The position numbers and the translations under genes are program-made. DNA of 64,000 nt, taken from Antedon mediterranea (taxonomy: Eukaryota > Animalia > Echinodermata). The stretch covers positions 16,537,432 to 16,601,431 of the forward strand of contig NC_092679.1 of assembly GCF_964355755.1 (NCBI RefSeq), given 5' to 3'. The notes below the pieces were generated by a model. That model did not search any database, was not told the origin of the DNA, and saw only the letters and a list, made by a program, of their open reading frames with translations. Every line of letters begins with the position of its first letter. The first letter of the stretch is position 1. Of this stretch, positions 9,701-46,100 are shown piece after piece.

Positions 9701-12065
9701 GACCGACCGACATAGTGAGCTGTAGAGTCGCGTTGAACGCGACTAAAAATACTGTAATGATAACGATATCACTGTCCTATAAAGCAAAGTTTCACGTGAC
9801 ATGGAGATTTAACAATATTCTAATAAATGACTTTAAATTTTATAAACTAAATTTATTGCGCTTTACATTTTTTTTCAGACGAGCAGTGATCGTGTCTTTG
9901 ACCCACTTTCAGTAATAGCGCAGCAGATCTTCATATTTGTTCACATCATTGGCAGATTCTTTCTTCTAAGAAGGCGCATTTCTCCTGATAAACTGTCAAA
10001 ACTGTTATTCATGTATATTGGCATGGCAGCTGACATCTTTGTGTTTATCACCGAAGGACTGAATGTAGTCTACATCAAGGATTCTGATGAAAGTACGATG
10101 TATATGATCTTGAGTATCTGGTCATGGAGTATGTTGCAGTTTACCATCGGTCTAACGTTAACAAAACGTCGCAAGACTCGAGCAGTTAGTGGTACTGTTA
10201 CGCACTCATATCGACGTTTCTTTGAAACGGACGTATGGGCAATAATGATAACAGTGATAATGCAGGATGGTCCGTTTCTTGCCATGAGAATTTATATAAT
10301 CACACAGTTTAATTTCATATCACAGATGTGGTTGTTCTTCACAGCCAAAAATGCACTTGTTATACTTCTTCAATTATTTCGCCTGATCGTTCTTTATGGT
10401 GCTATCAAAGAAGAAGACAGAACATCTAGTTTTACTACAGAACACACAGGAGAAGATCGTGATGTTGCTGACAACAATGGGACAAATGAACACGTTCCTT
10501 CTGATGCTATTAAAGAAGAAGACAGAGAATCTAGTTTTACTACAGAACACACAGTAGAAGATCGTGCTGTTGCTGACAACAATTCGACAAAGGAACACGT
10601 TCCTTCTGATGCTATCAAAGAAGAAGACAGAGAATCAAGTTTTACTACAGAACACACAAGAGAAGATCGTGATGTTGCTGACAACAATGGGACAAAGGAA
10701 CACGTTCCTTCTGATGCTATCAAAGAAGAAGACAGAACATCTAGTTTTACTACAGAACACACAGGAGAAGATCGTGATGTTGCTGACAGCAATTCGACAA
10801 AGGAACACGTTCCTTCTGATGCTGTCAAAGAAGAAGACAGAGAATCTAGTTTTACTACAGAACACACAGGAGAAGATCGTGATGTTGTTGATAACAATGG
10901 GACAAAGGAACACGTTCCTTCTGATGCTATCAAAGAAGAAGACAGAGAATCCAGTTTTACTACAGAACACACAGGAGAAGATCGTGATGTTGCTGACAAC
11001 AATGGGACAAAGGAACACGTTCCTTCTGATGCTATCAAAGAAGAAGACAGAGAATCTAGTTTTACTACAGAACACACAGTAGAAGATCGTGATGTTGCTG
11101 ACAACAATGGGACAAAGGAACACGTTCCTTCTGATGCTATTAAAGAAGAAGACAGAGAATCTCGTTTTACTACAGAACACACAGTAGAAGATCGTGATGT
11201 TGCTGACAACAATTCGACAAAGGAACACGTTCCTTCTGATGCTATAAAAAAAAAAGACAGAGAATCTAGTTTTACTACAGAACACACAGTAGAAGATCGT
11301 GATGTTGCTGACAACAATGGGACAAAGGAACACGTTCCTTCTGATGCTATTAAAGAAGAAGACAGAGAATCTAGTTTTACTACAGAACACACAGTAGAAG
11401 ATCGTGATGTTGCTGACAGCAATTCGACAAAGGAACACGTTCCTTCTGATGCTATCAAAGAAGAAGACAGAGAATCTAGTTTTACTACAGAACACACAGG
11501 AGAAGATCGTGATGTTGCTGACAACAATGGGACAAAGGAACACGTTCCTTCTGATGCTATTAAAGAAGAAGACATAGAATCTAATTTTACTACAGAACAA
11601 ACAGGAGAAGATCGTGATGTTGCTGACAACAATTCGACAAAAAAACACGTTCCTTCTAATGCTATCAAAGAAGAAGACAGAGAATCTAGTTTTACTACAG
11701 AACACACAGTAGAAGATCGTGATGTTGCTGACAACAATGGGACAAAGGAACACGTTCCTTCTGATGCTATCAAAGAAGAAGACAGAAAATATAATTTTAC
11801 TACAGAAAACACAGTAGAAGATCGTGATGTTGCTGACAGCAATTCGACAAAGGAACACGTTCCTTCTGATGCTATCAAAGAAGACAGAGAATCTAGTTTT
11901 ACTACAGAACACACAGTAGAAGATCGTGATGTTGCTGACAACAATGGGACAAAGGAACACGTTCCTTCTGATGCTATCAAAGAAGAAGACAGAGAATCTA
12001 GTTTTACTACAGAACACACAGCAAAAGCCGGTGATATTGCTGTCATTGGGATAAAGGAACATTGA
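6798..12065 (+). CDS. TMEM26: TMEM26-family protein, divergent copy B with tandem-repeat tail (3 coding exons)
   Basis: Exons 6798-6997, 7916-8075 and 9879-12065 have the same intron phases as copy A and join in frame. Core MYIGMAADI, ILSIWSWSMLQFTIGLTLTKRRKTRA and ETDVWAIMITVIMQDGPFLAMRIYIITQFNF are nearly identical to copy A. Confidence 0.88.
8925..9227 (+). mobile_element. tRNA-derived SINE with L2-type tail
   Basis: A box TGGTGCAGTG, B box GGTTCGAATCC, body TCCGTAGGCAAGATACTTTAC...CTCTCCACCCAGGTGTATAAATGGGTACC, tail GTAAAGCGCCTTTGAG...GGCGCTATGTAAAT. A 3' fragment of the same family lies at ~21590-21750. Confidence 0.85.
9228..9550. mobile_element. MITE with ~33-bp TIRs inserted in the SINE tail
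   Basis: CAAAGAACTTATAACGCAAGAATCTCCTGTTC ... GAACAGGAGATTCTTGTGTTATAAGTTCTTTG inverted termini. Confidence 0.8.
10401..12060 (+). repeat. Coding 105-bp (35-aa) tandem repeat, ~16 units
   Basis: Unit AIKEEDRESSFTTEHT(G/V)EDRDVAD(N/S)N(G/S)TKEHVPSD. The frame is preserved throughout, with one 3-nt deletion. Confidence 0.97.
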
Positions 12066-13560: not shown

Positions 13561-16500
13561 TCATCTGATCTTCTTTAAATACTTGACTGTGTCTTTTGTG
13601 AACATGTAACTTAAACTAGATGTTATTGTGGTCGCTGCTGTAGTGTACCTATTACAAGGGAAAAAAAATGTGCTTTGGTCTTTTGATTGTGAGGGTTGGG
13701 TTCAAGTCCATATAAAAAATCCTTTTAACTTTTATACTTTCTCATTTGGGTCACACATGTCATGGTCAGAGAACACCTCTATTATTGGGACACTTTCCTA
13801 TGATACAAACAAACTGGAAATATATTTTGTAACATATGATCAACCCTGATTCTGGGGACACCTCTATTCAGTGGATACACTTATTCAGTAAAGCGACTTT
13901 TTGTTGGGTCTCAAAGGTGTCTCCTCAAATTTGGAGATAAAAGAATTATAAGGATTTATAATGTTTTAACACTATGGCCAAAACTAGGTGATAAGTTTAC
14001 TCAGGGGTCATCAGTATTCAGACGATACCCCTACTCAGACACCCGTATAGGAGGAATTTTGTTGGGTTCCAAGTGTCCCCCTTTAATAGGGGTTCCGCTA
14101 CACTTACCTTAACATTTGTAGATAGGAATGGTCAACATAATTGAAAACAGGAGCACCAAGAGTGAATCCAAGAAGAGCTAATGTAACAGCAGTATGAAAC
14201 TAAAGAAAATAATGAAACTTTGTCAAAACATAAGCTCCTAAGTGGAGGTAACAAAACTTCCTGAAATCTGGAAATTGAAAAATTTAGATCTGCCTATGTA
14301 CATTAATCCATGGTGTTTTGTTCGTGTGTTCGTTTTCCCATGACATAGGTGTCGTAGGGGCGTAGCAGAAGCCATATCTCCTCTCTGGGCCGGCGTGGGT
14401 TTTTGCTGGATGGCCGTCGTCGGTTCTCTTGAACCGACGCCCTTGTGGGTGTCCAACCACCTTCCACACCATGCTCCTAAAGGAGTTGATATGGTTACCG
14501 GTTTGGTCGCCAGTTTGTGACAGTGGCTGTGTTTTGTTGGACTAGTACACCGGGGTAACCCCCTAAAGATGTACTAGGTTCTTTAAAGTGCACATGAGCT
14601 ATGTGTACATTGGACTTACAGTTGAGCAAACAAATAATTGAACATCTTAATGAATGTATGAATGACTCACCTTTCCAAGGAATGTTGGTTGCATCTGAAT
14701 GGTGGCATGCCGTACATCAAAGAACCGTTGTAAAGTGAATGGTGGTGGTAGTGATATAAAACGGTAATAAAACCCAGCAAGAACCAAACCAATATCTCTA
14801 CCAATGATCAAGGCTGTCAGAGACACTGTAAAAGAAAATGTTCTTGAATGGAAACTGTACTACAGTGGAAACCCTATGTGTGTGTGTGCTAAAATTATGA
14901 ACTACATTTTGATGTCTATTTAGTATTAATATTATTAATTACCAATAGTAAATAAATCACTGAATAAATCAGATAGGTGGTAATCCCCTTGAAGAGGGGC
15001 AATCTTGTGAACCAGTTCACCAGGGTAACCCCCTACTCGTCTCGAATGATGAACTGGGTTCTTTAAAGTGCACACAGACAAACTTTTATTTTATAATTGT
15101 ATTTTTGGAATTTTTTTCTTTTTAGACACATTTTATGTTTCCTTTTCATTTTTCACTCCTTTTTAAAACATTGGAAATATTGTCGGTCTTTGTATTTGTA
15201 TTAAACTTTTATTGAAAATTGTTTAATGTCTTTTTATGAATGTTTTTAATCTATTGTTCTAAAAAGACAGGACCATATCCTGTCTAAAGATGTTTTTAAA
15301 TAAATACAAAAGTTTATAGTCCTCAATTTTAAAAATATCTTGGATATGCCTCTGAGTAGTGAATTTAATTTTTTTTTTTTTTAAATGGATAAAATACCTG
15401 GTATAAGTCCTTGCATACATAGTGTTATCATTAATATTCCAACCAGAAACTTATCTGCTAACGGATCTAAGATTGATCCAAGGACGGATTGCTGGTTTTT
15501 GAAGTTGCGGGCAATGTAACCATCAAGCTGAAACAAAAATGATAATTTTGTTGGTTATCCTTCTTTACTTTGAGTTTAATATAGACATTGTGGGTGTAGG
15601 GGAAAATTATGCTTGGTGATTTTTCCACCCACACCTCGAACTACAGTAGAAAATAAAGAACAAAAATTAAAGTCAAGATTGCGGCAGTTTTCCTTTTCTA
15701 TATCAGAGCAATAATTGGAACGACTTATCACTTACTTAGAAAGCAGTTGTGGCACCAACGATTAATAAATATAAATCAGAGATTGAGAGCTACTGGACAA
15801 ACCGCCCATTGAAGTTTAACCCATTAGGAGAACGTAGGAAGGAAGGCCCAGCGAGGCATATAGTACAAGCACTTGCTTTAAGTGCAAAAAGAAACTAAGT
15901 AAAACCAACCATATCAGTTATCCCTGTGAAAACGAATAATCCAAAGCTGAGAAGGTAGTATTCATTAAGCACTAGATAGCCAAGAACAGGTGAGAGAATG
16001 ATTCTTGAGGTTGTCAGAAGATTTGGTATAGTCATGATGTTTTCTCTCTAAAATATAAACAATTAAAGTCAATTTTTTGTATGGTAAATTAATCAAACAT
16101 TTAAATCAGGTCAAATTACCTGAATATTTGCATTTAACAAATCATTTATACATTTTTCTATTGTATTCAAATAACAATAATAATATATATATATATTTGC
16201 TTTTCTGGCTGTTTTGATTTAGCTTTTCTCTTTTTTTTTAAATCTCCATTGAGATCCAGCCACTGATACCCACAGCATTTCCTTTGTTTTGTCATTTTCA
16301 CTAATTTGACTTTGGATTTATATAATAATTTTAAAAATATAATATCCGTTTCTAATCTTACCCATTCTTTCACTTTCTTCTCAACCTTCTTGGTCACATT
16401 TCTTGCTTTTGTTTGGATTTCTCTTCTAGAAAAGCTTTGGAAATAAATTGGTGACAGACAGCCAAACTGACGTGTCAATCTTCTGCAATCTTGACTCCAA

Positions 16501-21893: not shown

Positions 21894-23337
21894 TCAATAT
21901 CTAGTGTCATACGTTTCATATGCAAAATCTTCAGTATGTGTAGGGTCGTATTCCGCTGATATCAAATCTATTTCTAAGGCAAATTCTCCGTCTACAGCGT
22001 CAGCCATCGTCAATCCAATACAGTTTATTATTTCTAGATCAATCGCTGACTGCTTATCTTGGATACGACCTTTGTTGGACAGAAAGAATTTTGAAAATGG
22101 TACCTGAAAAAGATTGAATCATTCTATTAATAATTAAAACAGTAAAAACAAAACAATTAAAAAAATGTAATTGTAAACTTTGGTCTTTTTCATTCAAGTG
22201 GTAGGCATAGTATCCTTGCACAGTCATATATCATTTGCTTATGGTTATCCTTGGCAATTTGCCTAAATATATAAAAAATTAAAACTTGGTTTAACTAGTT
22301 TCTAAGTCTTAAGATTGAAAAAAATTCCTTCCTAATATTTAAAATTATTAAGTAAATATGTACATTTAAAGTTATTTTTAATGTTTAACTGTCAGAATAT
22401 CGAACTCTCTGAAAACATGAAACTTTCCCCAAATCAGATTTTTCTTTAATTCTTTTTTTAACCATTAAAAACACATTCCAGAAAACCAGACATATCAGTC
22501 CAAAAGTGTCCAGTATTGTGAGAGTTTACTGTAAATAATTACCGTCACTTCTTGCCAATGAGGGCCTCCTCTCGTGAACAGAAAGTAACTCCAGATGTCG
22601 TCATTTGTTGCAGTGTAATAATTATCAGCGTACAAGTTCACCATGTACGATCTTCCATCACCTCTTACTCGGAACTTCAATACATTAAATTGCGTTAAAT
22701 CTATTTGAACTTTCTTGTCAAATGCACCCTTCAAAATGAAAAAAATTAATTACGATAAATGACTAGATGTCAGCTAAGTACAACTGATTGCTGATACTGT
22801 ACATGAGGTTCCAAAATAAAGGGGAATGGGTGGGGGTTAACATGGTGTAGGTGGGAGTGATACATTGTTATTCCCATTTGAAATCAATTATACTAGAACG
22901 GATAGAAATATATTATTCATCATCATACTTACATATAATTGTTTAGATTTAATCCCACAGTAACCACTTCTTTCCGTTACTCCGTCTTTTGGTAGAGTTG
23001 TTTTTAGTTCGCCATGAAATAGAAGCCGATTATTTCTACTCATGCATAATTTCGCCCAACTTTTTCCCCCAATTGCGTGATCGGTATGAACGACAAATTT
23101 GTTTATAATATCTTTACTTTCGCTACTCATTATCACCTTATGGGTGTCATACATAGTATCTAATTTTGACCCCCTAAGTTTGTCAAAAACTTCGCCACTC
23201 AAGAGCTTCAGGTTCCTCCTCCAATATGCTGTTATGCTTTCATCGCCGCCAGTGAGCGTTTTGAGTTGGCGTGTCACTGTTGAATTTTTAATCATTTCCT
23301 TTCCAAAGAAAATGCAGTTTTTTAAAGTGGCCTGCAT
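21894..23337 (-). CDS. NDUFAF1: Complex I intermediate-associated protein 30 (CIA30)
   Basis: Exons (minus) 23337-22933, 22728-22543 and 22103-21894. DHAIGGKS, ERSGYCGI, FRVRGDGRSYMVN, YFLFTRGGPHWQEV, VPFSKFFLSNKGRIQD, DPTHTEDFAYE. An acceptor at ~23365 implies a non-coding first exon near 23710. Confidence 0.95.
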
Positions 23338-26300
23338 GTTGCTGTCAGAGAAGCATCATAGAAACCTACAAAATATTTTTGTAATGTATTATTATTATAT
23401 TATATAAAAAAATAATAATTGTAATTTTATAATGTCACTAAAAAAAGTTTTGAACGAAATAGAAATCTCTCACATAATAAAAGAGAAAATGGGGGTGGGG
23501 TTATGGATGGGTTTTTTTTAAAAGGGTGGGGGAGGATGCCGTTGGCGTTGGATCTTTTTAGACTTTTTTGGGTCACAATTTTGGGAAATCTCACCCAAAA
23601 GCCAGCAGCAACTTCAAACTGGACATGCTGTAAGATGAGTTTTTTTTTATTTTAGCTACTTGGGAACTTTCATTAACTTAAATTGTAGGCCTAGGCCTAG
23701 TATACTAACCAAGCTCCGTTAGACTAGGTTAACGGGCTTCGTGAGCCGAACTAAACTTTATCCGATTCCCACACACCATCCCCATGGCGCCTACTACCAG
23801 GGCCTAGAGTAAAGTCTGCTCTTTCTACTTGTAGTAGACAGATCGTACGCTACACTTTGATCTCAGACTACTTATTAGCTATAATATTAACTATATTTTC
23901 TCCTTTACCTTGCATAAATATAAATTATCAGGGAATTATAATGCTTTTTAGGACCGGCGAATACACATTTCTCAAAGACCATGCAAAATATACTGTATTA
24001 CTGGTTTCTTTTCAAACTAAAGAGGTCTCACTGCAGATTTGTGAAAGAGTGTGTGTACGTGTCATGATTGATCTTAAGTTCCTTTTAAAGATGAAATAAC
24101 TAAGTTCGCTATTATTATATCTCTATAAGTTTAAATTAAACATTTCGTTTAATTTTGCTTTAATACACAACCATATGAATAGACTTATGTTATCACACCA
24201 TGTTGAAATTAATAAATAGAAACAAACACAAAACATATAATCAATTGATGTCGATTGATGTGTAATGTTTCATAATAGATTAGTTGTCCTACAACATGTT
24301 GTCTGGTCAAACTCTCCACGCACTGTTTATGATAAATCAACATAGTTTTTTCTTGTGATGGGTCTCGGGCATTATCAGGTACCAAGATCAGGGGCGGACG
24401 CAGGGGTATTGTTGCCCCAGTTGCCTTGTAATTTCATACTAATTTTTTTTCTTCTGTCATTTAACCCATTTAATCATAATAATAATAATCATTAACGTCA
24501 GCATATATATAGGCCTATATATTTTTTTTTATTCAGGTTGAAATTATCAGACCGTTAGGTATAGAGTGCTCAATACCTAGGTAGAGCATAAATAAATAAA
24601 ATAACAGCAGAAAACTTGGTTTCATTGTTTTAATCACTACAAATGTGTTTCGTGCGTCCAGCTACATGCTGGTCGTACGAAACAAATTTTAGTGATTAAA
24701 ACATAAGTGACACAGTTGTCTCATAGTGCTTAATAGAAGTGAGATCAAGAAGTCGTATACAATAGCCTATTGTTTTAGATTTAGATAAACTATTTGGATC
24801 TGCAATTTAGTAAGAATTTTTTCCTATGTCAACAAGTAGAGACTAACTCGTTCTTACGGTTCAGTGAGCATAGCTCTGGTTGACATTATAATAATATAAT
24901 TTTCATATATATACATAAATTGCATCTTTTGTTAATATTTGAGTAAGGTTTGCATTTCTTTATAATTTTCCATTTAATTGAGTAATTTGTTTTAGAGTCT
25001 TTAAGTGTCCATATATATTTACTGAGTTCCGTTGCGTTTCTTAGTTCGTTCCGGAATGAAGACGTATGGTTTCTGTATCTGGTTTTAAACTGGTTTTCAA
25101 TTAGTCCGACATATGTTTCTTCTTTTGATGAATCTGCTCTCTTTACTGTAGCTTGGTAAACTACTACTATATTTTTGGTAAACTACTACTATATATATTT
25201 TGTAGATATTTTTCTGAACATTCTCAGAACAACATTTCTGACTGTTTGGATTGCTTGTGTGCGTCATGAGAGAGTACGAAAAGCCGGCCACACACACTGT
25301 GTTTGTGGAAAGCTCCGTCATTGATTTGCCCATAATTTTTGCATTTTGCCGGGATTCCACATCATTTAAGTATGCCGTAACGTACCATATTTATCTTCAT
25401 TTCCCTACGTCGGTATTTTGAGTCCGTACTTTGAAATAATTCAGTGTTCAATTTCTCCTTTCTGCAAATTTCAATCATATTTTCTTTTCTGGAGTGTGAT
25501 TTTTGTGGTTTGTACGTGCGAGAGTACCATTTCTGGTCATATAGGGGTGTCATCAAAATTCGCTTCCCTACAGGCCCCACAATGGAGGAAGACCTGTGGC
25601 GCAATACTTGATATCTACGGCCTTGGACTCTTAGGCAACCCCTTAAAATAGTCCTGGAGTATGATCAAGAAAGCCAGCTTTACTAATAGCCTACTTCTAA
25701 TGTTCTGTTTGTGTTTTAAAACTACAGGCATGATATTCGAATTACAGTATTTTAGCACCTTTCCTTGTTATTTCGTTTTGTGTTTTTCTTGTATTGTAGG
25801 CCTATATGGCAGAAATTCAATAAATCAAATAAATTTCCTCATATTTCAGACAATAATTTAAATAGGCCAAAAATAATTAAAAGAACAATACGTATGAAGC
25901 GTGTTAGAACTTAGCAATACAATAGCTTTATAAAATAAATGATACAATACTTTTAAGACACACAGATTCACGGACACTGTTTCTCTATTCATGTTCGTTG
26001 TTGTTTATTAATTAAAAGTTTCATATTCTAGGCAAAAAATAATTATGACTATTTAAAGTAGGCATTATTGATTTAAACTAGGTTAGGTCCAGGCCTAGAC
26101 TATGCCTACTCACTTTTATTAAAGAAAGCGGGACCAAGTGCGATTTTTATTTTGAATCGGAAGAAGATTCACCGAGAAAAGGGGTCAACCTTCATGAATT
26201 GAGATCCGGCCGGCCGTTTCCTTTCTCCCTGTTGGTGCAATGCTGCCATATTAATTATTATGTATTCCACTGTTATTTAGCAGGTAACATGTTAGGAAAT

Positions 26301-26681
26301 TCTGGTAGCCCTTCCGTAAGCATTTTTTGACAATTTAAACATGAAACAGTGCTTTGGTTATTTTTTTTTTTTTGCAATAGGCCTACTGAAAATGGAATTC
26401 GATAGAATTTCGAATATTGTATCCTGGCAACCATAGAACATTTCGACCGTTAGAACCGCGCGTAGAACAAAAAGATGCATTTCGAACATGTGAACGCACA
26501 CGCGCTCAAAATTATCTATATAAGCAGCGCATCGACGACCAGCTAAAAATCGACAACAACCTGAGATTTCTCTCAACCAGTTGTTTTTAACGTGCTACTG
26601 TATAGTCTACACATAACGTGTTGCTAAGCAAAATTCGAATTCGAAAATTCTAAGATTCTGTTAACTTAACAACCAAGCATC

Positions 26682-29643
26682 ATGGCCAACAAATCGATTG
26701 AGCTTCAAGAAGAAGAAGAAGAAGGAATTATGATGGACCAGTCACAACAAGAAGAAGAAGGGTAAGTCTTTAGGCTAGTTTAGGCCTCGGGCTTTTCTAA
26801 TGTAGCCTGCCCTAACTAAGCCTAGGGCCAGGCCTACTACTAGCCTAGGCCTAGCCCTAGCCTAGGCCTAGCCTAATACTTAATAGGCCTAGGACTTAAA
26901 AAACTTTAAAGAGTTTGTTTTACCAATATTATTAGGGTCTAGGCCTAGGCCTAGGCCTACTCTGGCCTAGCCTAGGCTAGCTAGCTAGGCCTAGTAGGCC
27001 CTAGGCTAGCCTACCTGCCTAGGCTAGGCCCAGATAGTAGGTAGCTAGCTAGCTAGCTAGGCCTAGCCTCTCGTCTAGGCCTAGCTTAGTAGGACTAGGC
27101 TAGGCTAGGACTATACGCTAGCTAGAGGGCCTAGCCTAGGCGCGCCTTAACTTAGGCCTACTAGTAGTAGCTAGCTAGGCCTAGGCCTAGCCCTAGATAG
27201 GCCCTAGCTAGGCCTACTAGGTCTACCTAGGGCCTAGGCCTATATAAGTATAGTATAGGCTAAGTATAAATAAGTATATGCCTACCTGTCCTAACTAGGC
27301 CTATATAGGATATGCCCATGGGCCCTAGCCTACTAGCCTAGGCCTACCTAGATAGGCATCATATAGGCTAGGTAGGTAGGCCTAGTTTAGGGCCTAACTA
27401 AATAGGCCTAGGCCTATAGCTAGGCTAGGCGGCAGGCCTAACCCTAGGCTAGACTCCTAGTTTTCTTTTAGTTAGGGATAGTCTATTATATAGTATAATA
27501 GGAGCTAGGCTAGCTAGGATAGGACCTAGCCATAGTAGGCTATGTCTATACTACTCTAGGCTAGGCCTAGTAGTAGGGCCTAGCGTGATAGTAGGCTAGT
27601 AAAAAGTAAAATATAGATAGGCTAGCCTAGACTACTAGCTAGGGTCTGGCCTACTGACTAGATCATATAGCATAGGTAGAGATGAACCTACTAGTACTAC
27701 CTAGACTACTAGGCCTACTTAGTTACTAGGCCTAGCTATCAACAAGCTAGGAGTTGAGCTAGCTAGCTAGCTAGGGAGTTACTACTAGCATAACCATAGA
27801 ATAGGCCTACTTATTATTAATATATACTAATTAGGCCTAGCTAGTAATAATAGACCCTTGCATGTAGCCCTTTAAAAACTAACCTAACCATTTAGTTAGG
27901 TATGATTTACAGTTCAAGATATGACTGTAAGGGCCTAGTAACCTAGTATTGGGCATCTCTCTGTAGTCTAGTACTACTAGTAGGAAGTAGACAGCTTATG
28001 TAAGTTCTAAGTACCACACACAAGACTAGCTCTAGTAGTAGCAATACTGTAGGTTACTTATACCAAGCTAGCTGGGGGAGCATATTCTTAATCTTATTAT
28101 ACAGATCTTATTAAATTATTATTATTGAGTAAATATATTGTGAATTTTGTTTCTCCAATTAAGTAGATCTCAACCAGATGCACCACAGCAAGCAAGAAGA
28201 AAGTCAGTATTTGGAAGGATTTGGGCAGCAGTGCTTCATCTTTTGTGTATCAGAAGCGACGAATCATCGGATAGCAACTTAAGTTCGTCATCGTTGTCAT
28301 CATCATCATCGCCATCTCTATCAGCGGGCACAGTGTCGGCATCACTGTAAGGGGTACACGTATCAGTACGACAGTCATCATCAAAGTCTCTATCAAAGTC
28401 ATCAAGATCACATTCGTCTCTGTGGCCAATGTCATCCACATCGTCATCTTCAAAATTTGCGCTTTTTCCAGGCCAGATACTTACCACACCAGGTCTATCA
28501 CCAGGGGAGGTGATTCTCCCAAAGCAACGTGTGTATAGCTCGTCGTCGTCATCATCTTCATCGTCTACCGCTCCGGTCCAGCGTATTTTCAGACAACCAA
28601 CATCAGAGTTATCACCCGGTGAGATACTAGAAAGGAGTGTGCCATCATCGTTATCATCGCAATGGCCATTGTCACCTGCCAGTAGCTTCAATGGTTCGTC
28701 CCGTTCTTCGAAAAGTAACACCACCACTTCAACACCTAAACCCGTCCTTAACGATATAGAGGCTACAATAAAACTTGCTGACATTCTGCCGCCTGCTCGG
28801 TTATTAGTTAGTTCAAGTGTTTCCCACCTTAGTAATCCTGTACGTCTTGGACAGGGAAGTTTTGGCCGCGTTGACCTGATGACATCCGATCTTTTTCCAG
28901 GCCACTATCACCTCGTCGCAGTCAAGACGGCTTCTTTGAACAGTTATAGCAATCCTAATCATGCATGGGCCAAGATGCTGGCAGAAGCGCGTGTGATGAA
29001 GTTTTTAGACGATCTGCCTTCTGTTCCTCGCGTCTTTGGCGTCTTCCGCCAAGGTGACATATGCTGTATGGTGCAGGAGTTTATCGGAAATACCTTCAGC
29101 CTTTCCAGTACCACATTCCTGGATGTATTGCGAACCGGACAGCCGTCTTTGAGCGCGCTTGAATGTATCTCTATGACATCAGAGGTTGTCATTGCGCTCA
29201 ACGAAATGCACAAACGCGGGATTCTTCACAACGATGTAGCTGCGAGAAACATTCTGATCCACCACGATGGAACCAGCTACAGAGCGAAGCTTACAGACTT
29301 CGGGATGGCATGCAGAGTAGAATATCCAAGAGGTAACAGAAAGGTAATTTTTTCATCGATGGACGAAGTAATTCAATACATGGATAATCATCCAGAGGTA
29401 GCACCAGAAAAATACATTGACGGTGCTTGCGATTCTGTTAGCGGTGACGTGTATTCCATCGGTTATGGTATACGTATTGTAGGAGTGGCAATTAGACATA
29501 GTGACATGGTTGAATTTGGAAAGGCTTGTGCATGTTTCGACGCAGAAGATCGACCATCTCTGGATTGGGTAATCAACATCTTGGACATCTATAAAGAAAA
29601 GGAGAAGAGCAATCCAAAATGCCAGGGTATCAACGGGCCTTAG
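26682..29643 (+). CDS. Non-RD (HND) protein kinase with Ser-rich N-terminus; two exons, one in-frame TAA (possible pseudogene/null allele or shorter isoform from 28429)
   Basis: Exon 1 26682-26761 (MANKSIELQEEEE..., GG|GTAAGT, phase 2) joins in frame to exon 2 at 28164/28167. TAA at 28348-28350 is in the same frame as the 28429-29643 ORF. Kinase motifs GQGSFGRV, VAVK, alphaC E, HNDVAARNIL, DFG, APE, DVYSIG and RPS are all present. TATA-like TATATAA at ~26517. Confidence 0.8.
26770..28075. repeat. Low-complexity CTAG/TAGGCCTA/AGCT palindrome-rich tract (kinase intron 1)
   Basis: About 1.3 kb built largely of overlapping TAGGCCTA, GCTAGC and CTAG motifs without a fixed period. Confidence 0.9.
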
Positions 29644-30399
29644 TTTTTTTTTAATATAGTTTTTAATTATTAACATATAAACAATATAAACAAATAAAGC
29701 TCAGATATAATAATAAGAATAAATTAATATTAATTATGTTTCAATAATGATTATAATAAAATAATAATAATATAGTAATAATGAAAAAATTGATAATAAA
29801 TAGTATTAAAATGACAATCAAGAACATTAATAATAAAATCCCGCCAATTTATGTGCGTTTCTTTTTTAAGTTCATTCTTAATTAAACATTTTAAATAAAA
29901 TTACAAAATAGATGAAGCTCACAAAACATTATTTTAAGAACGAACATTTTAAGTTGCTATTGGTAAGTATTGTAAAAAAGTAAGTATAAGACTTATAGTT
30001 TCTATTTTTAACATATATATTTAAAAAAGTAATAAAAAACTCTTTTATTTGTTTAAACAAGGTTAGATGTCCTATAATTTTTAATTATAATTCTTTATTA
30101 TAATTTTTATATTTCAATATATTGTAATCAAAAACATACAAAAAGCTCGCGTTTATAAAACATCATTTTTCTTATATTTTTTTTTCTCTATTTTTAGGTT
30201 ACCACGATACAGTCTTGCTAAAAAGTACATGACGTTTATTCACGAAAGTCATCCTTTAACCCAATATACTGTAGGTAAATTATTATTCTATTGTATTTAA
30301 GATTGTAATACATCGATCTATATATTTTATTATATTTATATTATTAAACGTTTTCTCTTACTCAAATAAATACATTTTATTATAGTATAACTTAACTTG

Positions 30400-32020
30400 T
30401 TATTTTTTCTTTTCATGCAAACCTGCCACGACTACAAAATGATGATCAAGAGGTAATTAAAATTGTATTTATTTCTTTAAATATTTTTGTGGAAAATCTG
30501 TGTATCTTTTATAAGCTTACCTAACTAACTGTTTTCTTTTCGTTAATACTTGTCGAGTAAATTACAATCAACAAGACCTCGATACCAGGCTAATGTTGTC
30601 AACATAATATTAAGTAAGAGCAGTCATAATTGTTACCTAAAACTCTATCCACCAAAATATTAAAAAACGTACAATTGATTTGTTTATAACCGTGTAATAG
30701 AGTAATTATTATTTATTTATTTTTTTAAATGTTGTTTTTCATTGATACTTGTCGGGGGAACTACATCAACAATCGACACCAAGCTGATGTTATCAACATT
30801 TTATGTAAGAAGAGTCACAATTGTTAACTACAACTCTATCCACCAAACTGTCATATACAATATTTGTTTATAAGTGTGTAATAATTATTGTTTTTTTGTT
30901 ATAAATACTTTCTGATGGCGACACGACATAATCAAGTCAATATCAACATTTTAGGTATGAACATTTAATCACGTTATACTACTCTAGTCTGGCCAAGGCA
31001 ATCGAAATTGGTCGAGCTATTACAAGTTATACCAACATTAAGTATTGTTTAATTTTATTATGTTTAAAACTTTGATAATTCTTTCATTTTATTAATTGGC
31101 GAGAGCACTATTACTACGACTTATCAAAAAGAAGTCAAAATCGTGATGTTAGCAACATTTTAGGTAACGACATTACATTTTTGTTATGAATTCGAATTTG
31201 AATTAACCTAGTTGAATTAGCCTAAGCGTTTTACATACAAATATCTTTTTTTATATAACTTTGTAATTTAATTTTTTCCTCTCATTTTCGGGAAGTACCA
31301 CAACTTATCACCAAGAAGGTAATATTAAATTTATGTCTCCAACATTTTAGGTACCACTGACAGTTGATGTTTGAAAATTATATTTTAGTTTTTAAAAGTT
31401 AAATTAAACGTTTTACAAATAATATACAAATGCTTTACTTGCTTTGAAATTCTTTTTTCTTTTCATGAATACGCAAACCAACTCATCACCAAGAATTTCA
31501 AGATGATGTTTTAATATTTCAGGTACAACAACCAGTCACAGTTAAATTCGAGTCTAGATTGTGAAATTTTAACCATACAAATATGTATTTAGTTTATACT
31601 TTTATAATTTTTTTTTTCTTTTCATGAACGGGAAGCAACTCATCACCAATAATTTGAAGAGGGTGTTTTAATATTTCAGGTACAACGACCAGTCACAGTT
31701 AAATTCGAGTCTAGATTGTGAAATTTTAACCATACAAATATATGTTTTTTTATACTTTATAATTACGTTTTCTTTTCATGTGCTGGAACCTACCCAAGAA
31801 GTTAATACCAAGATGATGTTCTCAACATTTTAGTTTAGGTAAAAAGAGTCAACCTGATATGACCACAGTTGTTACTTTAAAGTTGAATCTACCTTGCTTT
31901 CAGATATGGCATTTATTTTATCTGTCTTGTCTTTTCATGAATACGTTTTGATGGAACTATCTCACAACTCATCAAGTTACTGTATATATTATCAAAGAGG
32001 ATGTTCTTATTTTGTACATG
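30400..32020 (+). repeat. Diverged tandem array of ~10 exon-intron-like units (150-210 bp)
   Basis: Each unit has a TTTTCTTTTCATG pyrimidine tract, ACTCATCACCAAGAA...GATGATGTT..CAACATTTTAG, then a GT donor-like site (30453, 30614, 30805, 30955, 31164, 31351, 31523, 31680, 31839, 32014) and an AT-rich spacer containing CATACAAATAT. Confidence 0.8.
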
Positions 32021-32061
32021 ACGAACCTTTTTATTCTTTTTTTAAATGACAATTTAAATTT

Positions 32062-32370
32062 GAGCGAGTCATATGGCCGAGCGGTTAAGGCAGGGGCGCC
32101 GTTTACCGTACCTAAAGAGCCAACAACAACATCGGCAAGGGTTCGAGGCCGACTCGCTCCTAGTTCTGGTGGTGGAACAAGTCTTCTCGGATAAGGACTA
32201 TAAACCGTAGGTCCAGTGTACACAGTTATAACCTGTGTGTACTTTAAAGAACCCAGTTCATTATTCGAAAAAGAGTAGGGGGTTACCCCGGTGAACTGGT
32301 TCACACAATAGCCCATGTATCAGGGGGATTACCACCTATCTGATAGGACAGTGATTACATAACACTTGAA
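32062..32370 (+). mobile_element. tRNA-derived Deu-domain SINE (near full length)
   Basis: A box TGGCCGAGCGG and B box GGTTCGAGGCC; the head is closed by GAGCGAGTC/GACTCGCTC. Deu-like core GACTATAAACCGTAGGTCC...TTAAAGAACCCAG...CGAAAAAGAGTAGGGGGTTACCCCGGTG. Confidence 0.85.
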
Positions 32371-33444
32371 TGTGTTTATTTAGGTGATCTATGTAACAGA
32401 ATGAAAGATGATAATTCAGAATCGTGGTATTTTAATGATTGAATCCCCTGGACATTTTGATTTTTCAACTCTCATTCCTTTTAAACAAGTTAAAATTAGA
32501 TCGTGGCGGGGTGAACATCTCTCGACATGCGGCCTCGGTAACAACTGTTATAAATAATGCTATTCATGAATGCAATAATAACGTCATTTAACACTGTATG
32601 GTATTGACAATCTAATAGATCTCAGATTCCTATTAAAATGATATAGTAGTTTGTATTAATATTAGTACAATGTGTTGCATCCGAAACATAACTTACTTAC
32701 TTGTTAATTTAAACAAGAATATAAATCTAACAATATCATTACTACTAAGATCTGCCGTTTACAGTAGTTTAACATTTTAAATAATGACAATAATAAAGTT
32801 TGTTCGGCAGTTAATGTACTGGGGAACCTGGGGAAAAGTAAGTCATGCTTGTTTAAAAAATTCTCTTACTCTATTATTAACTATTTTGCTGCTATTACAA
32901 ATAAATCAATTTAATAAATAAATATTACGGTACAACACATAATTCGTTATAGTATTCAAATTAAACGCATGCTTGTAATTTGTAAAATGCATTAAAACAA
33001 TACATATTTGACACCTACTATCGTGTGTGTTATTATTCATTTGCAGAACTTGTAAGTCGTCTGTTAGTGTTAGTAGAGCGATTCCCAGAATCCTGAACAC
33101 TAGAATCTTCCACCACCATTGTTTGTCGGAAACAACATGATTTTTCATTCGTGCAACACCCGATCAATTCCGAAATTATACCTCCCTGATTACAGTATAT
33201 ACTCGATGAAATGGGATCAACATTTCAATTTGGTGGCAGAAAAACATTTAGTATGAAATTAAGGGTGTTGCCTGGGCAACATCCCTGGGTCCGCCCCTGA
33301 AGATCCATCCAAGATCAAACTTGTTCTGATATATTGTTCGCATGATTGATGCAATTAAAATTAGAACAAATTGAATTAGAGCACATGGCTTATCACAGTG
33401 GCAAACCAAATTATTAAATTATCTGAGTATTTATTTTTTAAATA

Positions 33445-33648
33445 AGTTTGATATTGAAAATATGTGTAGTTGGTCGCTTCCTTGTAGATGCTTAATTGTA
33501 GATTGTATTTTCTTTTGTGCTCTGTTCTGGGTTGACCAACTAGCATATAGGTGTTTGGTATTTCTTTGCCTTTTATATTTGTTTTGTTTTCTTTGTATTG
33601 TATAATATGGCAGAAAATTGAATTAAATAAATAAAATAAATAAATAAA
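33445..33648 (+). mobile_element. Dispersed retroelement 3'-tail repeat ending in (AATAA)n
   Basis: Closely similar ~200-bp copy at ~60826-61042 and a short piece at ~25785-25832. Ends ATGGCAGAAAATTGAAT(AAATA)n. Confidence 0.65.
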
Positions 33649-33845
33649 AGACAAGTAAAATTGATAATCTTAGCAGCATGCACAACGCCACGTAGTTTTA
33701 TTGTGTCTGTAAAAATATAACCTCTTATTCAATTACACATTAAACCGTCTGAAAGCCTATTTTACCAAGTTAGTGCTAATGAAGAATCCTCGGATACGTG
33801 AACTTTTTTGCTTTTGTGATTCAGTATAAATTATCTTATTATGTC

Positions 33846-36800
33846 CTACTCAATTGTTATCAATTGCTTTACATCAGATGTATACCGCTTATTGAGAGAC
33901 GTGTCGTCACCAAGCATAAAGTGCTGACTCATGTCTTTTGAATATTTTGAAGCAGGGGGACGATGCCCCACGCTTTCTGCCAGAGCTCGCGTGTAGTGAG
34001 GAGAGTTACCACAGCACACACCTACATAGCCAATTCCCATTTCTTTGCAGCGTTTTCCAAATTCATAGATGTCAGCTCGTGTACAAAGAGCACAGTCTAA
34101 GTTGTCTGGAAACAAACGTTTTCCTGTAGAATGCAAATAAAAAGAGTTGTTGCTTCCTTTTATACGGGAAATTTGAATACATAGAACAAAAAACGGAATT
34201 AAGGTATATAAACACTCGCAACAAAAAACAAGAATTAAACCTGTTTTTGAATCAGTTAAAAGCTGCATGTTTGGTTTGTCGTCTGTAGTGCGGTAAGGCA
34301 CAGGTACGCAGGCCAGTGGTTTCTGAAAAGTAAAACAATTATACAGCTTTCAGTTTTATAAATGAAAGAAAATAAGAATTACTTATCTGTATATAAAGAC
34401 AATTTAAAAAGGTGTGATCGGGTACTCTGTGAAAACGAAGGTTTTTACAAAAAAAATCCATATTGAACAAATGGATGTGGTGGGTACCCTCATAAAACCC
34501 CTCTCTGTCCACACGTCACTGCTTGACAGTACAGAAAAAAGGGATACAATAGACTGGCATGGGTTAGAGTTAATGATTTTTATTTATTTATTTTTTTATT
34601 CAACTTTATTTATAGAGGGTGACCCTCAGCGTATGCTGGCAATCAAGATAATTGTCTGTGTGTGACAGTGGCTGTGTGTATTAATACTGTTATAGTATTA
34701 CGTATGCCTAAAACCCGATGATTCATTACTCGACACAACAATTAAAGATTGCCTTCTTAGCTCTACTTATATTTACCTTACAATTTTCCTTAACTATATG
34801 CATGATATTCAGTGTCGTCTCTGGTCCACGTGCGCAGTTCAGACCAATCACATCAGCTCCTGCATCTTCCAGCATCTTGATGGCATCACTAAGTTTTACA
34901 TTATCAAGCGTAGCTGGAACGCCTTCGATTGTATTCTGGTAAATTGAAATGGTTACAACAGCTGGGAGACCTGTAGAAGAATAAGGAAATCTAAAAAATA
35001 GCCAATATCGATGTAATTTCCGAGAAAATTGACCGAATTCGCCTATCCCATTTAAAGCTCTGTCTACACATCAAACTTTATGTGACAAAAAAAAAATGTG
35101 ATGTGCCCATATAAAGCTCTGTTACACTATCAAACTAGTTTGATAAAAAAAAGTGTGACGTGCCCAAATATGGTAATGACACCCAAATATGGTTGTGATA
35201 TGACATCATCACGTCATAAAATGTGATAGTGTAGAGAGAACTTTATAGACATGATGATGTCATATCACTGCCATATTTAGGCATATCGCCACCATATTTG
35301 GAAACATCACACCTTTTTTTGTAAAACTAGTTTGATAGTGTAGACAGCGCTTAAGAATGGATATGAGACTCTCCCCTCAGTCCAATCCTATTCACGTTGG
35401 AGAAATTGACTCAAATGTTACCTGAACCATATTCCTTGATGGCTTTCACGGACAATAATGCTTCCCCAATATCACCACAAGTTTCAGATAGGATATAGTC
35501 TGCGCCTTCTTCAACAGCCCATACAATTTGTTCCTGAACATTAAAAGTAACTTAGTAGTACTTCGTGTTATTAAATAACACATTTTGTTGTAGGCTACAC
35601 TAATAATTCACGTGATAGACCTAGATGTAACCAATACGTAAATAATCTCTCTACCCGACGCGCGACGACATCTGTAATTTCAGAGAACAACATTATCGTG
35701 CCCATTAATTTAGTTTTGATTTAAAGCTAAAAGCCAACTCTGACAGCGTCGTTTGAAACATGTTTAAAGTTCCCGCGACGACCTGCTAGCCCGACGCTAT
35801 CTCAAGACGACTTGTTGTCAGCACCGACGAGTCAAGACGTTTCGTCGGGCCTCGTCGTAAGACTCTGTTTGAGCATGGACCTAATGGTCTGAGTTGGCCT
35901 TTAGAAAGTGGAGTAGAAAGAGTCGTGAGTACAAAATTACAACCCAGTGGCACAAGGTCAGGATTGAACCCTGGACCTTAGGATTGGAAGGAACCACCAA
36001 TCTAGAGATCGACTACAAAAAAAAACAGCATTAGGCCTACCCTAAATATTTCCATAATTTTACTTTCACACGTAGGATCGTCTGGTTTATATAATGTTGT
36101 GTTGCAGATATTTCCCGCCATTAGCGTCCCAGTCTCGTCTGCCACCTCTCTCGCCAACTTTAACGCAGTTCGGTTCATTTTTTCAAGATCTTGTTCACGT
36201 CCTATTAACCTCATCTTCTCACGATGGGCATAATACTGAAATAGAGAACAACTTGTATTATCATTTTTCATCTTCAGGAAGAAATGGGTTACCTGCGTTT
36301 TCTAATAGGATAAGATACGTATGATTAGACGTGCGTATTAGGTTACGTAAACGCAATTAAATGGTATTATACGTTTTCGTCGTGTGTAGAGCGTAAAAGT
36401 ATAGGCCTATTGAATTAAAAGAAATTCTGATTTTAATTATTTATTGTTACATGAGATTTATAACGCATTCTGAATTTGATGACAATTTTTGTATAATTCT
36501 GTTAAAACGTTTCGTATCGAGATATAATGGTCTCCATATCACATTTGACTATATTGAATAATGCCCCTGAGCGCAGTCAATATTTGTATTATATAAAATT
36601 GCAAAGATCATACGTACGGTAAACGCTACAACAACATCGCTACCAGCATGTGTGAATTCCCAGTACTGCTGACGAACCAACTCGGGGTACTCTAAAATAA
36701 CTTCTGGGACAAAAGCCCCCGCTTTCAGCAAACCCCTTCTTTCAAACAAAAACAGGTATCCCTCAGCCACCACGACAGTTTCACCATTGTTCAAGCGCTC

Positions 36801-40900: not shown

Positions 40901-42154
40901 TTATGTCATAAAAGAATGTGGATCTTTTGGGGTTTTATGAAGCGATGAGAAAACACCAATATGATCAAAAAGATTCGGCACCACTAAATACTGCTTAAGA
41001 GATACGGTTTTAAAGAACCTACTTATGGCAACATCCAATGGAAAAGTTGTATAGCACTGTATACCATTCAAGTGGTATTCCAAATTCTGTAAAAACTCTG
41101 TTTTATAAAGCACCGCTGGTATGCAGCATTCTGGAGCACCGGTAACTGTGTAGAAATCCGGGAAGACTAACCTAAGCCACAACAAATATGGCCGTCCGAT
41201 AACAAACATTAAAAGTCCGAAATAAAACGAGCACAACGAATACAACAGAATGCGCTGAGGGGTAGTCATAAACTTGACAAATATGTTAAAAATAGCGTAA
41301 AGAACACCGCCACCAAGCAAACCAGTGGCAATAAGCTCTAAAATTAGGTTATTGTCCGTCCCGTAACCTTCCCATTTTTCAGGAAAATAAAATTTCAAGG
41401 ATGCTAAATTATCTAAGTTTTTTTCAAGTCTATCATGAATAAATTTATTCTCTATTCTAGTATTTACTATCCGATCCAAGTGTTTTATAAACTGCGGATA
41501 CGGTAAGGCATCATCCTGAACGAGGATAGAATACGTTGCGTTAAATTTGCGCATTTGATTTATGCAAAAGACGTAATCCTGTTTTTCCTGTTCCCGTGCA
41601 TGAACTGTACGCCGGTTAGTTGATTCTATTGGTTGCTTCTGAACTGACGGAACATATCTTGATAACTTTATAGCTGCTTCATGTTCCTCCGGCTCCGTCT
41701 GCGCATTACAGATAAAAAATAAAATATCTTTTCTATTGTGCTCTACGAGTAGTTGATCAAATTTGGCAACAACACGAGGTAGGTACTGTGGTGAATATGC
41801 CTCAGAATTCTTATCCACTGTATGCCTACTAACAGTGATAACTCCAATGGCATATTTTGGTTTCTTTTTAGTAAAAGCTTCCTCATAGAAATTTCTTTCT
41901 TTTAAGTCCTCCATTTCTGAGAAATACTTATAAGCTGCCTCCCCTTCAAGCCTGTCTTTTTTTATCGCCACGTCAAGAGTATGTGTGCTTTTTCCTCGGA
42001 TGTAGTACCTCGAGAATGGTAGATTCCAGCATGTTATCGGTAATATTAGGCCAAATGTTAAAATGTATAGCACAACAATTATTTGGATTATATAACTGAA
42101 TTTTTTAAACCTCATCTTCCACTTCCAGGTCAACCTACCATGGCAACCTACCAT
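40901..42154 (-). CDS. PGAP4: GPI-GalNAc transferase (TMEM246/PGAP4), single coding exon
   Basis: 417-aa ORF with N-terminal TM, EKQDYVFC, ILVQDDALP, LKFYFPEKWEGY, two internal TMs, ECCIPAVLY and VPNLFDHIGVFSSL. Splice acceptor at ~42182 upstream of the ATG. Confidence 0.88.
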   Translation of the reverse strand: MVGCHGRLTWKWKMRFKKFSYIIQIIVVLYILTFGLILPITCWNLPFSRYYIRGKSTHTLDVAIKKDRLEGEAAYKYFSEMEDLKERNFYEEAFTKKKPKYAIGVITVSRHTVDKNSEAYSPQYLPRVVAKFDQLLVEHNRKDILFFICNAQTEPEEHEAAIKLSRYVPSVQKQPIESTNRRTVHAREQEKQDYVFCINQMRKFNATYSILVQDDALPYPQFIKHLDRIVNTRIENKFIHDRLEKNLDNLASLKFYFPEKWEGYGTDNNLILELIATGLLGGGVLYAIFNIFVKFMTTPQRILLYSLCSFYFGLLMFVIGRPYLLWLRLVFPDFYTVTGAPECCIPAVLYKTEFLQNLEYHLNGIQCYTTFPLDVAISRFFKTVSLKQYLVVPNLFDHIGVFSSLHKTPKDPHSFMT

Positions 42155-42479
42155 CAGTTGTTCATCAAAATCTTATTTTACCTGAAAATAAATATACAAT
42201 TGAATGTAATAATAATAATAATCATTTTTAACTTATAATTTCTAAAAATTCAACACAATATAATATGATGTGCTATTTAAGTTACAAGTTTATTATGAAA
42301 ATATTTACATAATACAAAATATTTATCGACCAAAATATGATTTGTTGTTGTTTAATAACTATATAACATGTCAAAATTATTGATTAAAAATAAATAAGCT
42401 CAATTTTTGCAGTTTAAAGTTTATTAGGTCAATTGTTGTATACTACAGTTAAAATAGACAAACCGGTTTTGCTGTTTAC

Positions 42480-43192: not shown

Positions 43193-46100
43193 ATGGGACG
43201 TAAAGTTGGTAAAAGAAAACACAAATTTGAAGTAAAAAATGAGGCAAAAATACCCAAAGATGTAGTACAAGGAAATATTGATGAGAAAGAACAAAATGAC
43301 AAGTTTGATGTGAACCTTGTTCAAGAACTTGGCGGAGACGAAGTAAAGTATTGTTTGACTATTTTATGAAGCAAGGCTAGGCCTGCCATAGCTAGCTGCT
43401 GGAGTGACTATCTGAGCCGTGTGATCTGAGACGAGGAATGTGTGTGAAAATGCAAGTTGTGGAGATGCAGGTCATTTCGTCCCAAATTCAATATTTGTGA
43501 ATATCACAAAAACTGCACGACTGATCATATTGATAATGAAAATGATAACAATTGCCCTGTAATTCGTAAAATTTAATATTAATTTAATAATACCCTTACT
43601 TGCTTTAAATTGAATATGTAAATCTTTTTTTTTTTTCAGGAAGACTATAATTTATTAAAAGATGTTGAAGATGACCCGTTGAAGGAAGAGTTAGAGCTCA
43701 AAGATGATGGAACAGAGATTAGTCAACAAGAAGTTGCTGCATTCCTTAATAGTTTGGGTATAAAAAAGTCAAAAGATATCAAAAGGTTTGTCTATATTAA
43801 TATTAGATATATTATTCATGAATTATACCAAAATGCTGGGGTATTGAATTACTCTTTAAACATCTGAATATTATCAGCTAATTAAAATATTTTTCATTTG
43901 TCATCATTGTTCTCGTTTGTGACTTACACCAAAATTATTAATCATGTTTTTATGCATAAATATTGCACAGCATTTTACAGAATATTAAGAAAAAAAACGA
44001 ATTTACAATTTCTAATTATTATTTACATGTTTCCGATGTTTATGCACTTGTCAATTGCATGACCCACTATACGACCCCCGGGAGAGGTGCGTCATTTGTC
44101 CGATGTACGTCATACTTTTGAATACCATGACGCACCCGTGCGTCAAAAAGGTGACTTACCTTTAGGTGACCATGACGCACCCATTTTGACGCACTGTGAC
44201 CATGTTGTTTATGATATGGTGGGTGGTAAAGTGACGGTCATTGACACACCTTGTTCATTGATGCGACGTACCATCTAGGTTTTTTGACGCACCCCTGCGT
44301 CAGTAATTATTTGTAAATGACGCACCCATGACGCACCTCTCCCGGGGGTCGTATAGTGGGTCATACAATTGAAAAGTGCATTATGTACTCAAAGTATCCC
44401 TATATAACTTTTTATCTTGTATTTTTAATCTGTTATAATACTGCACGTTTTTAAATTGTTGCAATATTGTTGTTTTAATCTACCAAGCAAAGTGAATTTT
44501 CATTTTTATGGACAAATAAAATTTCTTGAATCTTGAATAGACATTCATTTGTTTATAGTATATTTATTATTACATAATAAAAATCAAATAAAAAAAATAT
44601 GACACTGCAAAGATAAATATTAAAAAAAAAATTCTAAAAGAATATAAGTTACACTACACAGTTTTAGTTTCATTAATCAATCAATTTTCCTCTTTATTTT
44701 AATTTATTTGAAAAAAAATAATTTTGTTTTGTCATCATTTATACATAATTATTCATTTTTAATTTTAATCGTTTGAGTAAATATTTTTTTTTTCATTTTA
44801 AGTAAAAAAACAAAAGAACAGAAAGTAACGCCAACAACCAAGAAGAATACACACGAGCAAAAAATAAACAAATTCATAATAAAACCAGATTTATTGAAGA
44901 AACTAACGCAGTCGCCTACTTACAAATCTTATCTATTCAAGCCTGGTAGTAAATGGTATGAAAATAGGGTAAGATCAATGCATTTATCACCTTTAACATG
45001 TGTAGAAGTGCATGTATTTTACTGGCGGAAAAAGTAGGCTATTATCACTTTTTCTGGCAAACTAAACCCATTTCCAGATCCATCCTGCCGGGGGCCTGTG
45101 CCTCAAATACTCGTGTCCGAACCCGCATTGTTGGATCCTGTCCACGGCCCTGGTAAGTTAATATACAATATCTGAATGTTTTTTTGTTATATCCAAAACA
45201 ATCGAGAGTCGTTACGATTGGAATATTGGTAGACTTAAGGGTCTGATGTTAACAGGTCAATTTTCCAATGACACTATTAACTGTCTGGTTTTTGGAATAC
45301 ATATTATAGTGATAACGGTTTTAATTATTTTAACAGTTTAATGAGGATCCATTGAAATTTAAGCAGATCAACGATGAAGCACTGAAAGTTTTCCAGACCC
45401 ATGCTGCTAAATTGTATGCTAATGAAGTGGAACTTTACAAGCAAAGTATGTAAATATTTTCCTATAGGTCCATGATTAAAACAAGCTAAATGCAGGTTTC
45501 AAGAGATGGAGATCAAAAGATTAATATCTGGTGTTGCATGTTAACCCCAATGGAATGTTATTTAATAACAATAATATACGTTATACTTACTTACTGTGAC
45601 CTCTATCCACTCATATATACTGTATACTATCTTTTTTTTTTAACATTTGTTTGAAGAGTGGAAAAATAAACGAAACTTGGGCCAAGACATACTTAAACTT
45701 ATATGACTAGATTCCTCCATTTTTTCCTATCTGCCATTATGACAGCCAGTTATTTTGTCTGCATACAAATCAGTCCCTAGTACATCAATTATAATATCCT
45801 TTATAAAGCGCCTAATTGGAAACCTGTAAAGTGTGTACGTATTATTATCCTACAAAGTTGTGTCTTGACCTTTCCAGGTACTCATTTGTACACCAGGGAA
45901 AATGCAAATAAAGTGTCTTGCATAAAGAACCCACTATCTCACAATCAGTAGACACAATTCTCATAGATGGCACCTTTCAATCTTAATTTAGATTGAGTTA
46001 GAGTAGAAGACTATTATTTGTATTAATTTCATACACATTTAAAAGTGAATTACAAGATGGATAAATTATAATCGTGCTTATAAACTCAGTTTTAGGCTTA

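Follow-up and report, generated by a model that had tools for sequence, protein, structure and literature searches.

Introduction

Transposons with terminal inverted repeats (TIRs) that enclose gene sequence, or Pack-TIRs, are the closest described relatives of the locus reported here, and animal examples that carry whole genes and keep multiplying are rare: in the portion of the survey by Tan et al. (2021) available to us, multiple copies were recorded for 4 of 281 cases from reference genomes, and the captured pieces had a median length of 224 bp (PMC8277862). We describe an 8.9-kb TIR-bounded unit (24389..33299) that contains a protein kinase gene, found in a 64,000-nt stretch of the echinoderm Antedon mediterranea (NC_092679.1, 16,537,432 to 16,601,431; this whole stretch is called the window, and positions count from its first letter). 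The unit is probably an old and decayed copy of a multicopy, non-autonomous element that is moved by a transposase encoded elsewhere.

The locus has one defining feature of a multicopy Pack-TIR, namely gene sequence enclosed by two ends of one TIR family together with a target-site duplication (TSD), and it seems to work like the multicopy animal cases; we consider it likely to be an unusually large, multicopy, Pack-TIR-like element. As far as the accessible text of the survey goes, it resembles Ssk-FB4 of Drosophila and Pack-hAT-N8_XT of Xenopus in being a transposase-free TIR element that encloses gene sequence and probably exists in several copies, and there is a further likeness to Ssk-FB4, whose cargo is an almost complete gene, upstream region included (PMC8277862). 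Unlike the Pack-TIRs surveyed in that text, it carries a kinase gene of 3 kb, with promoter and intron, within an 8.9-kb unit common to two organisms. No TIR-free parental copy is known here, the kinase paralogs being known as proteins alone, and no distinct TSDs of further copies were seen. The general kind is already known, and it is the size and the cargo that are unusual.

The hAT5 subgroup of hAT transposons has a 5-bp TSD (Kojima, 2025, PMC12730594, in the part consulted), and the element shares with it this length and short TIRs; hAT5 is, however, defined by its transposase, of which none was detected in the element, and membership is putative, suggested by TSD length. The Repbase rule, as given in the section of PMC4455052 we consulted, asks for agreement of the first 11 bases with the terminus of a classified hAT5 element; descriptions of hAT5 ends were found in neither PMC6004678 nor PMC12512617. 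Kinase families riding in DNA transposons are also known from the nematode Mavericks, which carry KRMA kinases (bioRxiv 10.1101/2022.07.12.499685), and from the fungal IS3EU, which carries alpha-kinase genes (PMC12730594). According to the excerpts of these sources, those carriers are autonomous or virus-like and hold other kinase types, whereas the element described here is a transposase-free echinoderm element with a eukaryotic-fold, tyrosine-kinase-like cargo. The consulted part of PMC6431247 contained no kinase cargo, and none of the papers listed by our literature search (Repbase lay outside its scope) was on a crinoid TIR element that carries a kinase.

Results

Terminal Repeats and Target-Site Duplication

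The two ends of the element are imperfect inverted repeats of about 64 bp, one at 24389..24452 (forward strand, with weak homology to the right end running on to about 24490) and one at 33238..33299 (reverse strand); read inward from 24389 and 33299, they share 76% identity over 67 alignment columns. Each abuts the pentamer AAGAT, at 24384..24388 on the left and 33300..33304 on the right, and the two 5-mers are identical, as the sequence-only reading had reported. The duplication cannot be extended to 8 bp, and its length is established from one insertion of one. Several observations place this arrangement beyond coincidence: besides 24389 and 33299, no further ends of the same TIR family occur in the 64-kb window; among six listed pairs of CAG[GT]GG[CT]-type ends, only the 24389/33299 pair has a matching TSD; in a random control, 1 of 20,000 pairs of 70-nt pieces drawn from the window scored as high as the TIR pair; and the chance of two random 5-mers agreeing is p = 0.0018. 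The TIR element structure at 24389-33299 is genuine, its ends and TSD being far beyond chance. Subtracting the nested pieces described below leaves a core of about 7.3 kb.

Transib/RAG-like elements have a 5-bp TSD with CAC termini. The termini here begin with CAG, and a Transib/RAG-like identity was rejected on this ground. The CAG-G-rich terminus presumably resembles hAT ends.

Depth of the Interior and the Ends in Two Organisms

We estimated copy number from the depth of contigs of sequencing runs, principally X2 (organism A) and X5 (organism B, a relative), and also X6 and X8; X9 had too little flank coverage for use. Adding up contig depths does not yield a copy number, so the depth ratios given here are estimates. 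The X2 flanks are identical to the window, of which X2 may be the source, and consist of single contigs at a depth of about 300 (22249-24559 and 33575-34681), where unique contigs have a depth of about 302 (vs about 49 in X5). The interior is deeper: across 35 listed sites, taken from the best 40 of 1,033 rows, the median was 4.2x the unique contigs in X2 and 7.5x in X5. By part (X2/X5), the ratios were 4.0/4.7 in the intron of the kinase gene, 4.6/8.2 in its second exon, 4.7/6.6 in the 3′ region and repeat array, and 2.8/6.3 in the right arm, and three single X5 contigs of the kinase stand at 5.5-7.9x. Within the right arm, position 33114, only 185 bp from the right end, is at cassette depth (4.6x in A, 6x in B), and position 32543 is at 1x in organism A.

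The TIRs themselves are more abundant still, with 15-21x (A) and 37-47x (B) at the left end, and about 31x (A) and 46x (B) at 33232. Three further single-copy X2 contigs join unrelated DNA to this TIR, in which they terminate, and loose contig ends cluster at its outer edge (24387-24392) in X2, X5, and X6; the TIR ends therefore belong to a dispersed transposon family. Together, these depths suggest several kinase-bearing copies per genome.

The Kinase Gene and Its Premature Stop

The sequence-only reading had described the cargo as a promoter-bearing, spliced kinase gene. A TATA-like box (26517..26523) as predicted promoter and an in-frame GT-AG gene model agree with this, all on the forward strand: a predicted first coding exon of 80 bp (26682..26761) with an ATG and an acidic N-terminus, a predicted 1.4-kb intron of CTAG-rich low-complexity sequence (26762..28166, with GT at 26762 and AG at 28166), and a predicted second exon of 1,477 bp (28167..29643), which encodes an amphipathic, Cys-containing motif (28186-28254), a Ser-rich linker, and the kinase domain (about 28840-29600). 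What had been overlooked is an in-frame TAA (28348-28350) at codon 88 of the 518 codons of the joined reading frame, owing to which the frame from the predicted first ATG is interrupted. An internal ATG at 28429 could start a 404-aa protein containing the entire kinase domain. The TAA interrupts what was formerly coding sequence, because the 23-residue motif preceding it is shared (57% identity) with a paralog (P0007) from Anneissia. Basic-amphipathic, Cys-containing motifs resembling it were also seen, by eye, in more distant family members, and the motif may act as a membrane anchor. A short intron that would remove the TAA was considered, judged by eye, and discarded, as no in-frame acceptor with a good pyrimidine tract is present. 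In run X8, which may or may not be RNA, non-coding DNA upstream of the gene has about the same depth as the kinase.

The Kinase Protein and Its Relatives

The window protein has the full set of catalytic motifs (Gly loop, VAxK lysine, alpha-C Glu, H-x-D..N, DFG, and APE), so by its motif set it is predicted to be a catalytically competent eukaryotic protein kinase. None of the 19 aligned members departs from H-x-D, N, or D-x-G. The catalytic loop is tyrosine-kinase-like, yet its usual R is replaced by N, which makes this a non-RD kinase; non-RD kinases are linked to immunity. The structure model (predicted local distance difference test, pLDDT, 91) indicates a confident kinase fold, apparently nearest to tyrosine kinases, with EphA5, Syk, FGFR, and Lck as the best solved matches at about 20% identity.

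The close relatives are few. In a search for near-length proteins, seven of eight matches were the window protein or relatives at 51-84%, the named relatives coming from A. mediterranea (three) and Anneissia japonica (two). Relatives above 45% identity are crinoid wherever they are named, which marks the host as a crinoid. Among 1.84 billion representatives, the close group stops at 45% and is followed by a broad group near 30%; 20 of the latter were looked up, and 12 clusters were named from crinoids, a sea star, or sea urchins. These echinoderm "orphan" kinases of crinoids, sea stars, and sea urchins are about 30% identical and have long, variable N-termini. The close Antedon paralogs lie on contigs of 36.2 Mb (two) and 31.7 Mb, vs 25.0 Mb for that of the window protein, and the Anneissia paralogs are spread over three different scaffolds; paralogs on separate chromosomes support a dispersed kinase family. 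In a tree of 24 rows, the paralogs cluster by genus.

Two observations stand beside these. A kinase 55% identical to that of the window (P0004) lies on a contig of 8,968 bp, about the length of the 8.9-kb element. Two distant members from Diadema setosum (P0039 and P0290) fall into one 90% cluster although one is on a 49.3-Mb contig and the other on a 39.4-Mb contig, a separation that hints at mobility beyond crinoids.

A metagenome and viral scan with the single kinase protein yielded no relatives among 173 and 8 candidate stretches; a scan with the kinase alignment picked up four loci in metagenomes and 48 in prokaryotes, generic kinases of 21-40% identity; and the ESM Atlas held generic kinase clusters only. 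A viral origin of the kinase was also considered and is unsupported, the best viral structures being retroviral oncogene kinases and giant-virus kinases at 12-22% identity.

Absence of a Transposase, and Nested Insertions

That the element holds no DDE transposase agrees with our searches: none of 71 open reading frames (ORFs) of at least 38 aa, counted apart from the kinase ORF and from ORFs wholly within the low-complexity intron, matched a transposase family, and neither did any of 12 frames of the two arms read through stops. The right arm (32400..33237) is non-coding as far as tested, with no Pfam match in read-through frames, and ORF, read-through Pfam, and splice scans of 29700-33240 revealed no second coding gene.

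The interior also contains nested sequence. A nested Penelope-like retroelement fragment occupies 24516..25340 (reverse strand, outer limits approximate); it has 327 homologs (57-73% identity by tblastn), with a GIY-YIG Pfam domain on one of them (P0205), and its depth is very high. The protein match to the GIY-YIG tail lies at 24799-25164, corresponding to the C-terminal GIY-YIG region of Penelope-like retroelements, a label that follows our reading of the homologs' layout; here the region is a truncated passenger and not mobilising machinery. The decayed ORF of the sequence-only reading (taken as 24886-25182, reverse strand) is this same GIY-YIG tail and not cargo. The 3′ part of the fragment also contains a 79-bp hairpin (24626-24703), 84% self-complementary.

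A segment with an A-rich repeat tail follows at 25342..25835 (forward strand), the tail recurring at 33564-33641 and 60968-61036. One single-copy X2 contig spans 25342-25897, and an X8 contig departs from the window sequence at 25841; the segment is likely a second nested insertion. Downstream of the kinase lies a degenerate array of about nine units of 130-200 bp (30400..31925, forward strand), mostly at multicopy depth. It had been taken for a decayed micro-exon array, which we could not confirm: a crude splice scan gave no acceptor inside it, but the kinase's own acceptor also scored poorly. A high-copy repeat resembling a short interspersed element (SINE) is nested at 32062..32385 (forward strand, limits approximate); it matches 14968-15077 and reaches an X2 depth of more than 200,000. 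We assume it to have tRNA-like A and B boxes, although neither ARAGORN nor Rfam made a tRNA-like call on it; ARAGORN reported nothing, and Rfam gave two weak matches to microRNA (miRNA) models far under the cut-off.

The Junction Shared With Organism B and the Decay of This Copy

The element lies between an NDUFAF1-like gene on the left (Pfam CIA30 at 22891-23355) and a BHMT-like gene on the right (homocysteine S-methyltransferase match at 34729-35070, slightly below the Pfam cut-off), as the sequence-only reading had it. In organism B, two contigs (24346-24479 and 24346-24441) show the left TIR at the identical junction, and the insertion is therefore probably older than the split of A and B. 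The left flank itself varies: X5 and X6 contain two to three versions of 23896-24380, one of which skips 24041-24194, where organism A has one version, and organism B has three versions of 24195-24343 and two contigs joining the flank to the TIR. B diverges from the window by about 10% in the intergenic DNA next to the element and by 2.9% in one kinase contig.

Within the kinase domain, 9 of the 11 listed differences are non-synonymous, and at all nine of these sites other contigs have the residue of one of two paralogs (P0002 or P0003). The tip branch of this copy in the tree is 0.13 long, vs 0.039 for its sister. The TAA, the eroded ends, the derived amino acid changes, and the long branch make the locus read as an old insertion under relaxed selection, in a family that apparently stays conserved.

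Discussion

We regard it as probable, on the evidence above, that 24389..33299 is an old, decayed copy of a multicopy non-autonomous TIR element with a 5-bp TSD, whose whole kinase cassette moves in trans. A transposase encoded elsewhere, probably of hAT5 type, would recognise the ends, move the entire cassette, and leave 5-bp duplications; this copy would have come to lie between its two neighbour genes by cut-and-paste transposition, at a time before A and B split. In what is likely a low-copy family, roughly 10-25 elements per genome would share the ends, and about 4-8 of them may bear the kinase. The cassette would supply its own promoter, and the family-type product is predicted to be a membrane-tethered, Ser-rich, non-RD tyrosine-kinase-like enzyme, for whose substrate a host signalling or defence target is the leading guess. 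As transposition makes new copies and old ones decay, the resident passenger gene would go through birth and death.

Several results weigh against this. The interior is patchy, with no more than 1.5x at 5 of the 35 sites in X2 and at 1 of 35 in X5. The first 120 bp of the left arm fall short of cassette depth: at 24436-24507, next to the TIR, both organisms reach no more than 1.7-2.9x, about 2x, so that this arm is not visibly part of the other kinase copies. No second complete element, with the kinase linked to both ends, was seen in the contigs, and no partner transposase with the same ends was identified. The empty site expected at the left junction did not appear among the listed rows of X2, X5, X6, and X8, B having the TIR there, and the left-flank versions in B hint at local duplication. 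On the protein side, the length-restricted search returned no close relative of 511-2000 aa, and none of the annotated Antedon paralogs includes the N-terminal part. The earlier proposal of a non-autonomous TIR element that disperses a lineage-specific kinase is thus supported by the ends, the TSD, the depth in two organisms, the other TIR flanks, and the paralogs on separate chromosomes, and falls short at the left arm and at the linkage of the other copies to both TIRs.

The left arm also bears on a second explanation, that the kinase cassette became multicopy by another route (as a nested element or through gap filling) and landed later inside a resident TIR element. The left arm stands at about 2x vs 4-8x for the cassette, the multicopy interior seems to start near 25841, the TIR ends outnumber the kinase by a factor of 3-6, and, in the available part of the survey, most animal Pack-TIRs are single-copy products of gap filling (PMC8277862). 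This would nevertheless leave the right arm at cassette depth as close as 185 bp to the right end (33114), and the 25 longest of 287 inverted pairs brought no inner pair of ends to light; moreover, the low depth of the left arm may stem from a deletion and from nested insertions that are confined to this locus, where loose contig ends are found. We judge such later filling unlikely.

If the region had been duplicated, segmentally or in tandem and with the element in it, the depth would rise without any transposition, and the three versions of 24195-24343 and two flank-to-TIR contigs of organism B would fit this. The X2 flanks, however, are single contigs at unit depth vs about 4x inside, the kinase depth in B (5.5-7.9x) exceeds that of its flank, and the paralogs lie on different chromosomes, which makes duplication a very improbable source of the extra depth. 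Least credible of all is that two independent miniature inverted-repeat transposable element (MITE) fragments happen to flank a resident kinase gene and match in 5 bp by chance, since, although ends of this TIR family number in the tens per genome and the two considered here are no more than 76% alike, these two face inward, neither has a nearer partner, the TSD match has p = 0.0018, and the interior is multicopy where the neighbouring DNA is not.

Building on the trans-mobilised, kinase-carrying element that we prefer, one may go further and suppose that the kinase is a long-resident gene of a transposon lineage with 5-bp TSDs, and that the echinoderm "orphan" kinase expansions are transposon-borne effectors modulating host signalling or silencing; we offer this only tentatively and think it rather doubtful. 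If the other copies are complete, lineage-specific kinase expansions in echinoderms would have a concrete mechanism in this element, which would also offer a testable example of a transposase-free element that has kept a signalling enzyme. Taken by itself, the present copy, a decayed insertion, tells us little about function.

Other Features of the Window

Two tandem TMEM26-like exons lie on the forward strand at 3426-4826 (with a Pfam Tmem26 match) and 9846-12065; the second ends in a C-terminal tail of about 16 in-frame copies of a 35-aa (105-bp) repeat. Directly after the first is a 132-aa frame (4827-5225, forward strand) without Pfam support, which we take to resemble the GIY-YIG tail of another retroelement. 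To the right of the element, a palindromic MITE-like family is represented at 35112-35352, with kin at 49721-49887, 52272-52797, and 54236-54330 and an X2 depth near 2 million, and a separate MITE-like element of 340 bp (44042-44381) has 54-bp inverted ends of 96% identity. A single-exon ORF of 423 aa (40901-42172, reverse strand) gives a weak hint of an MGAT4 glycosyltransferase (E = 0.065).

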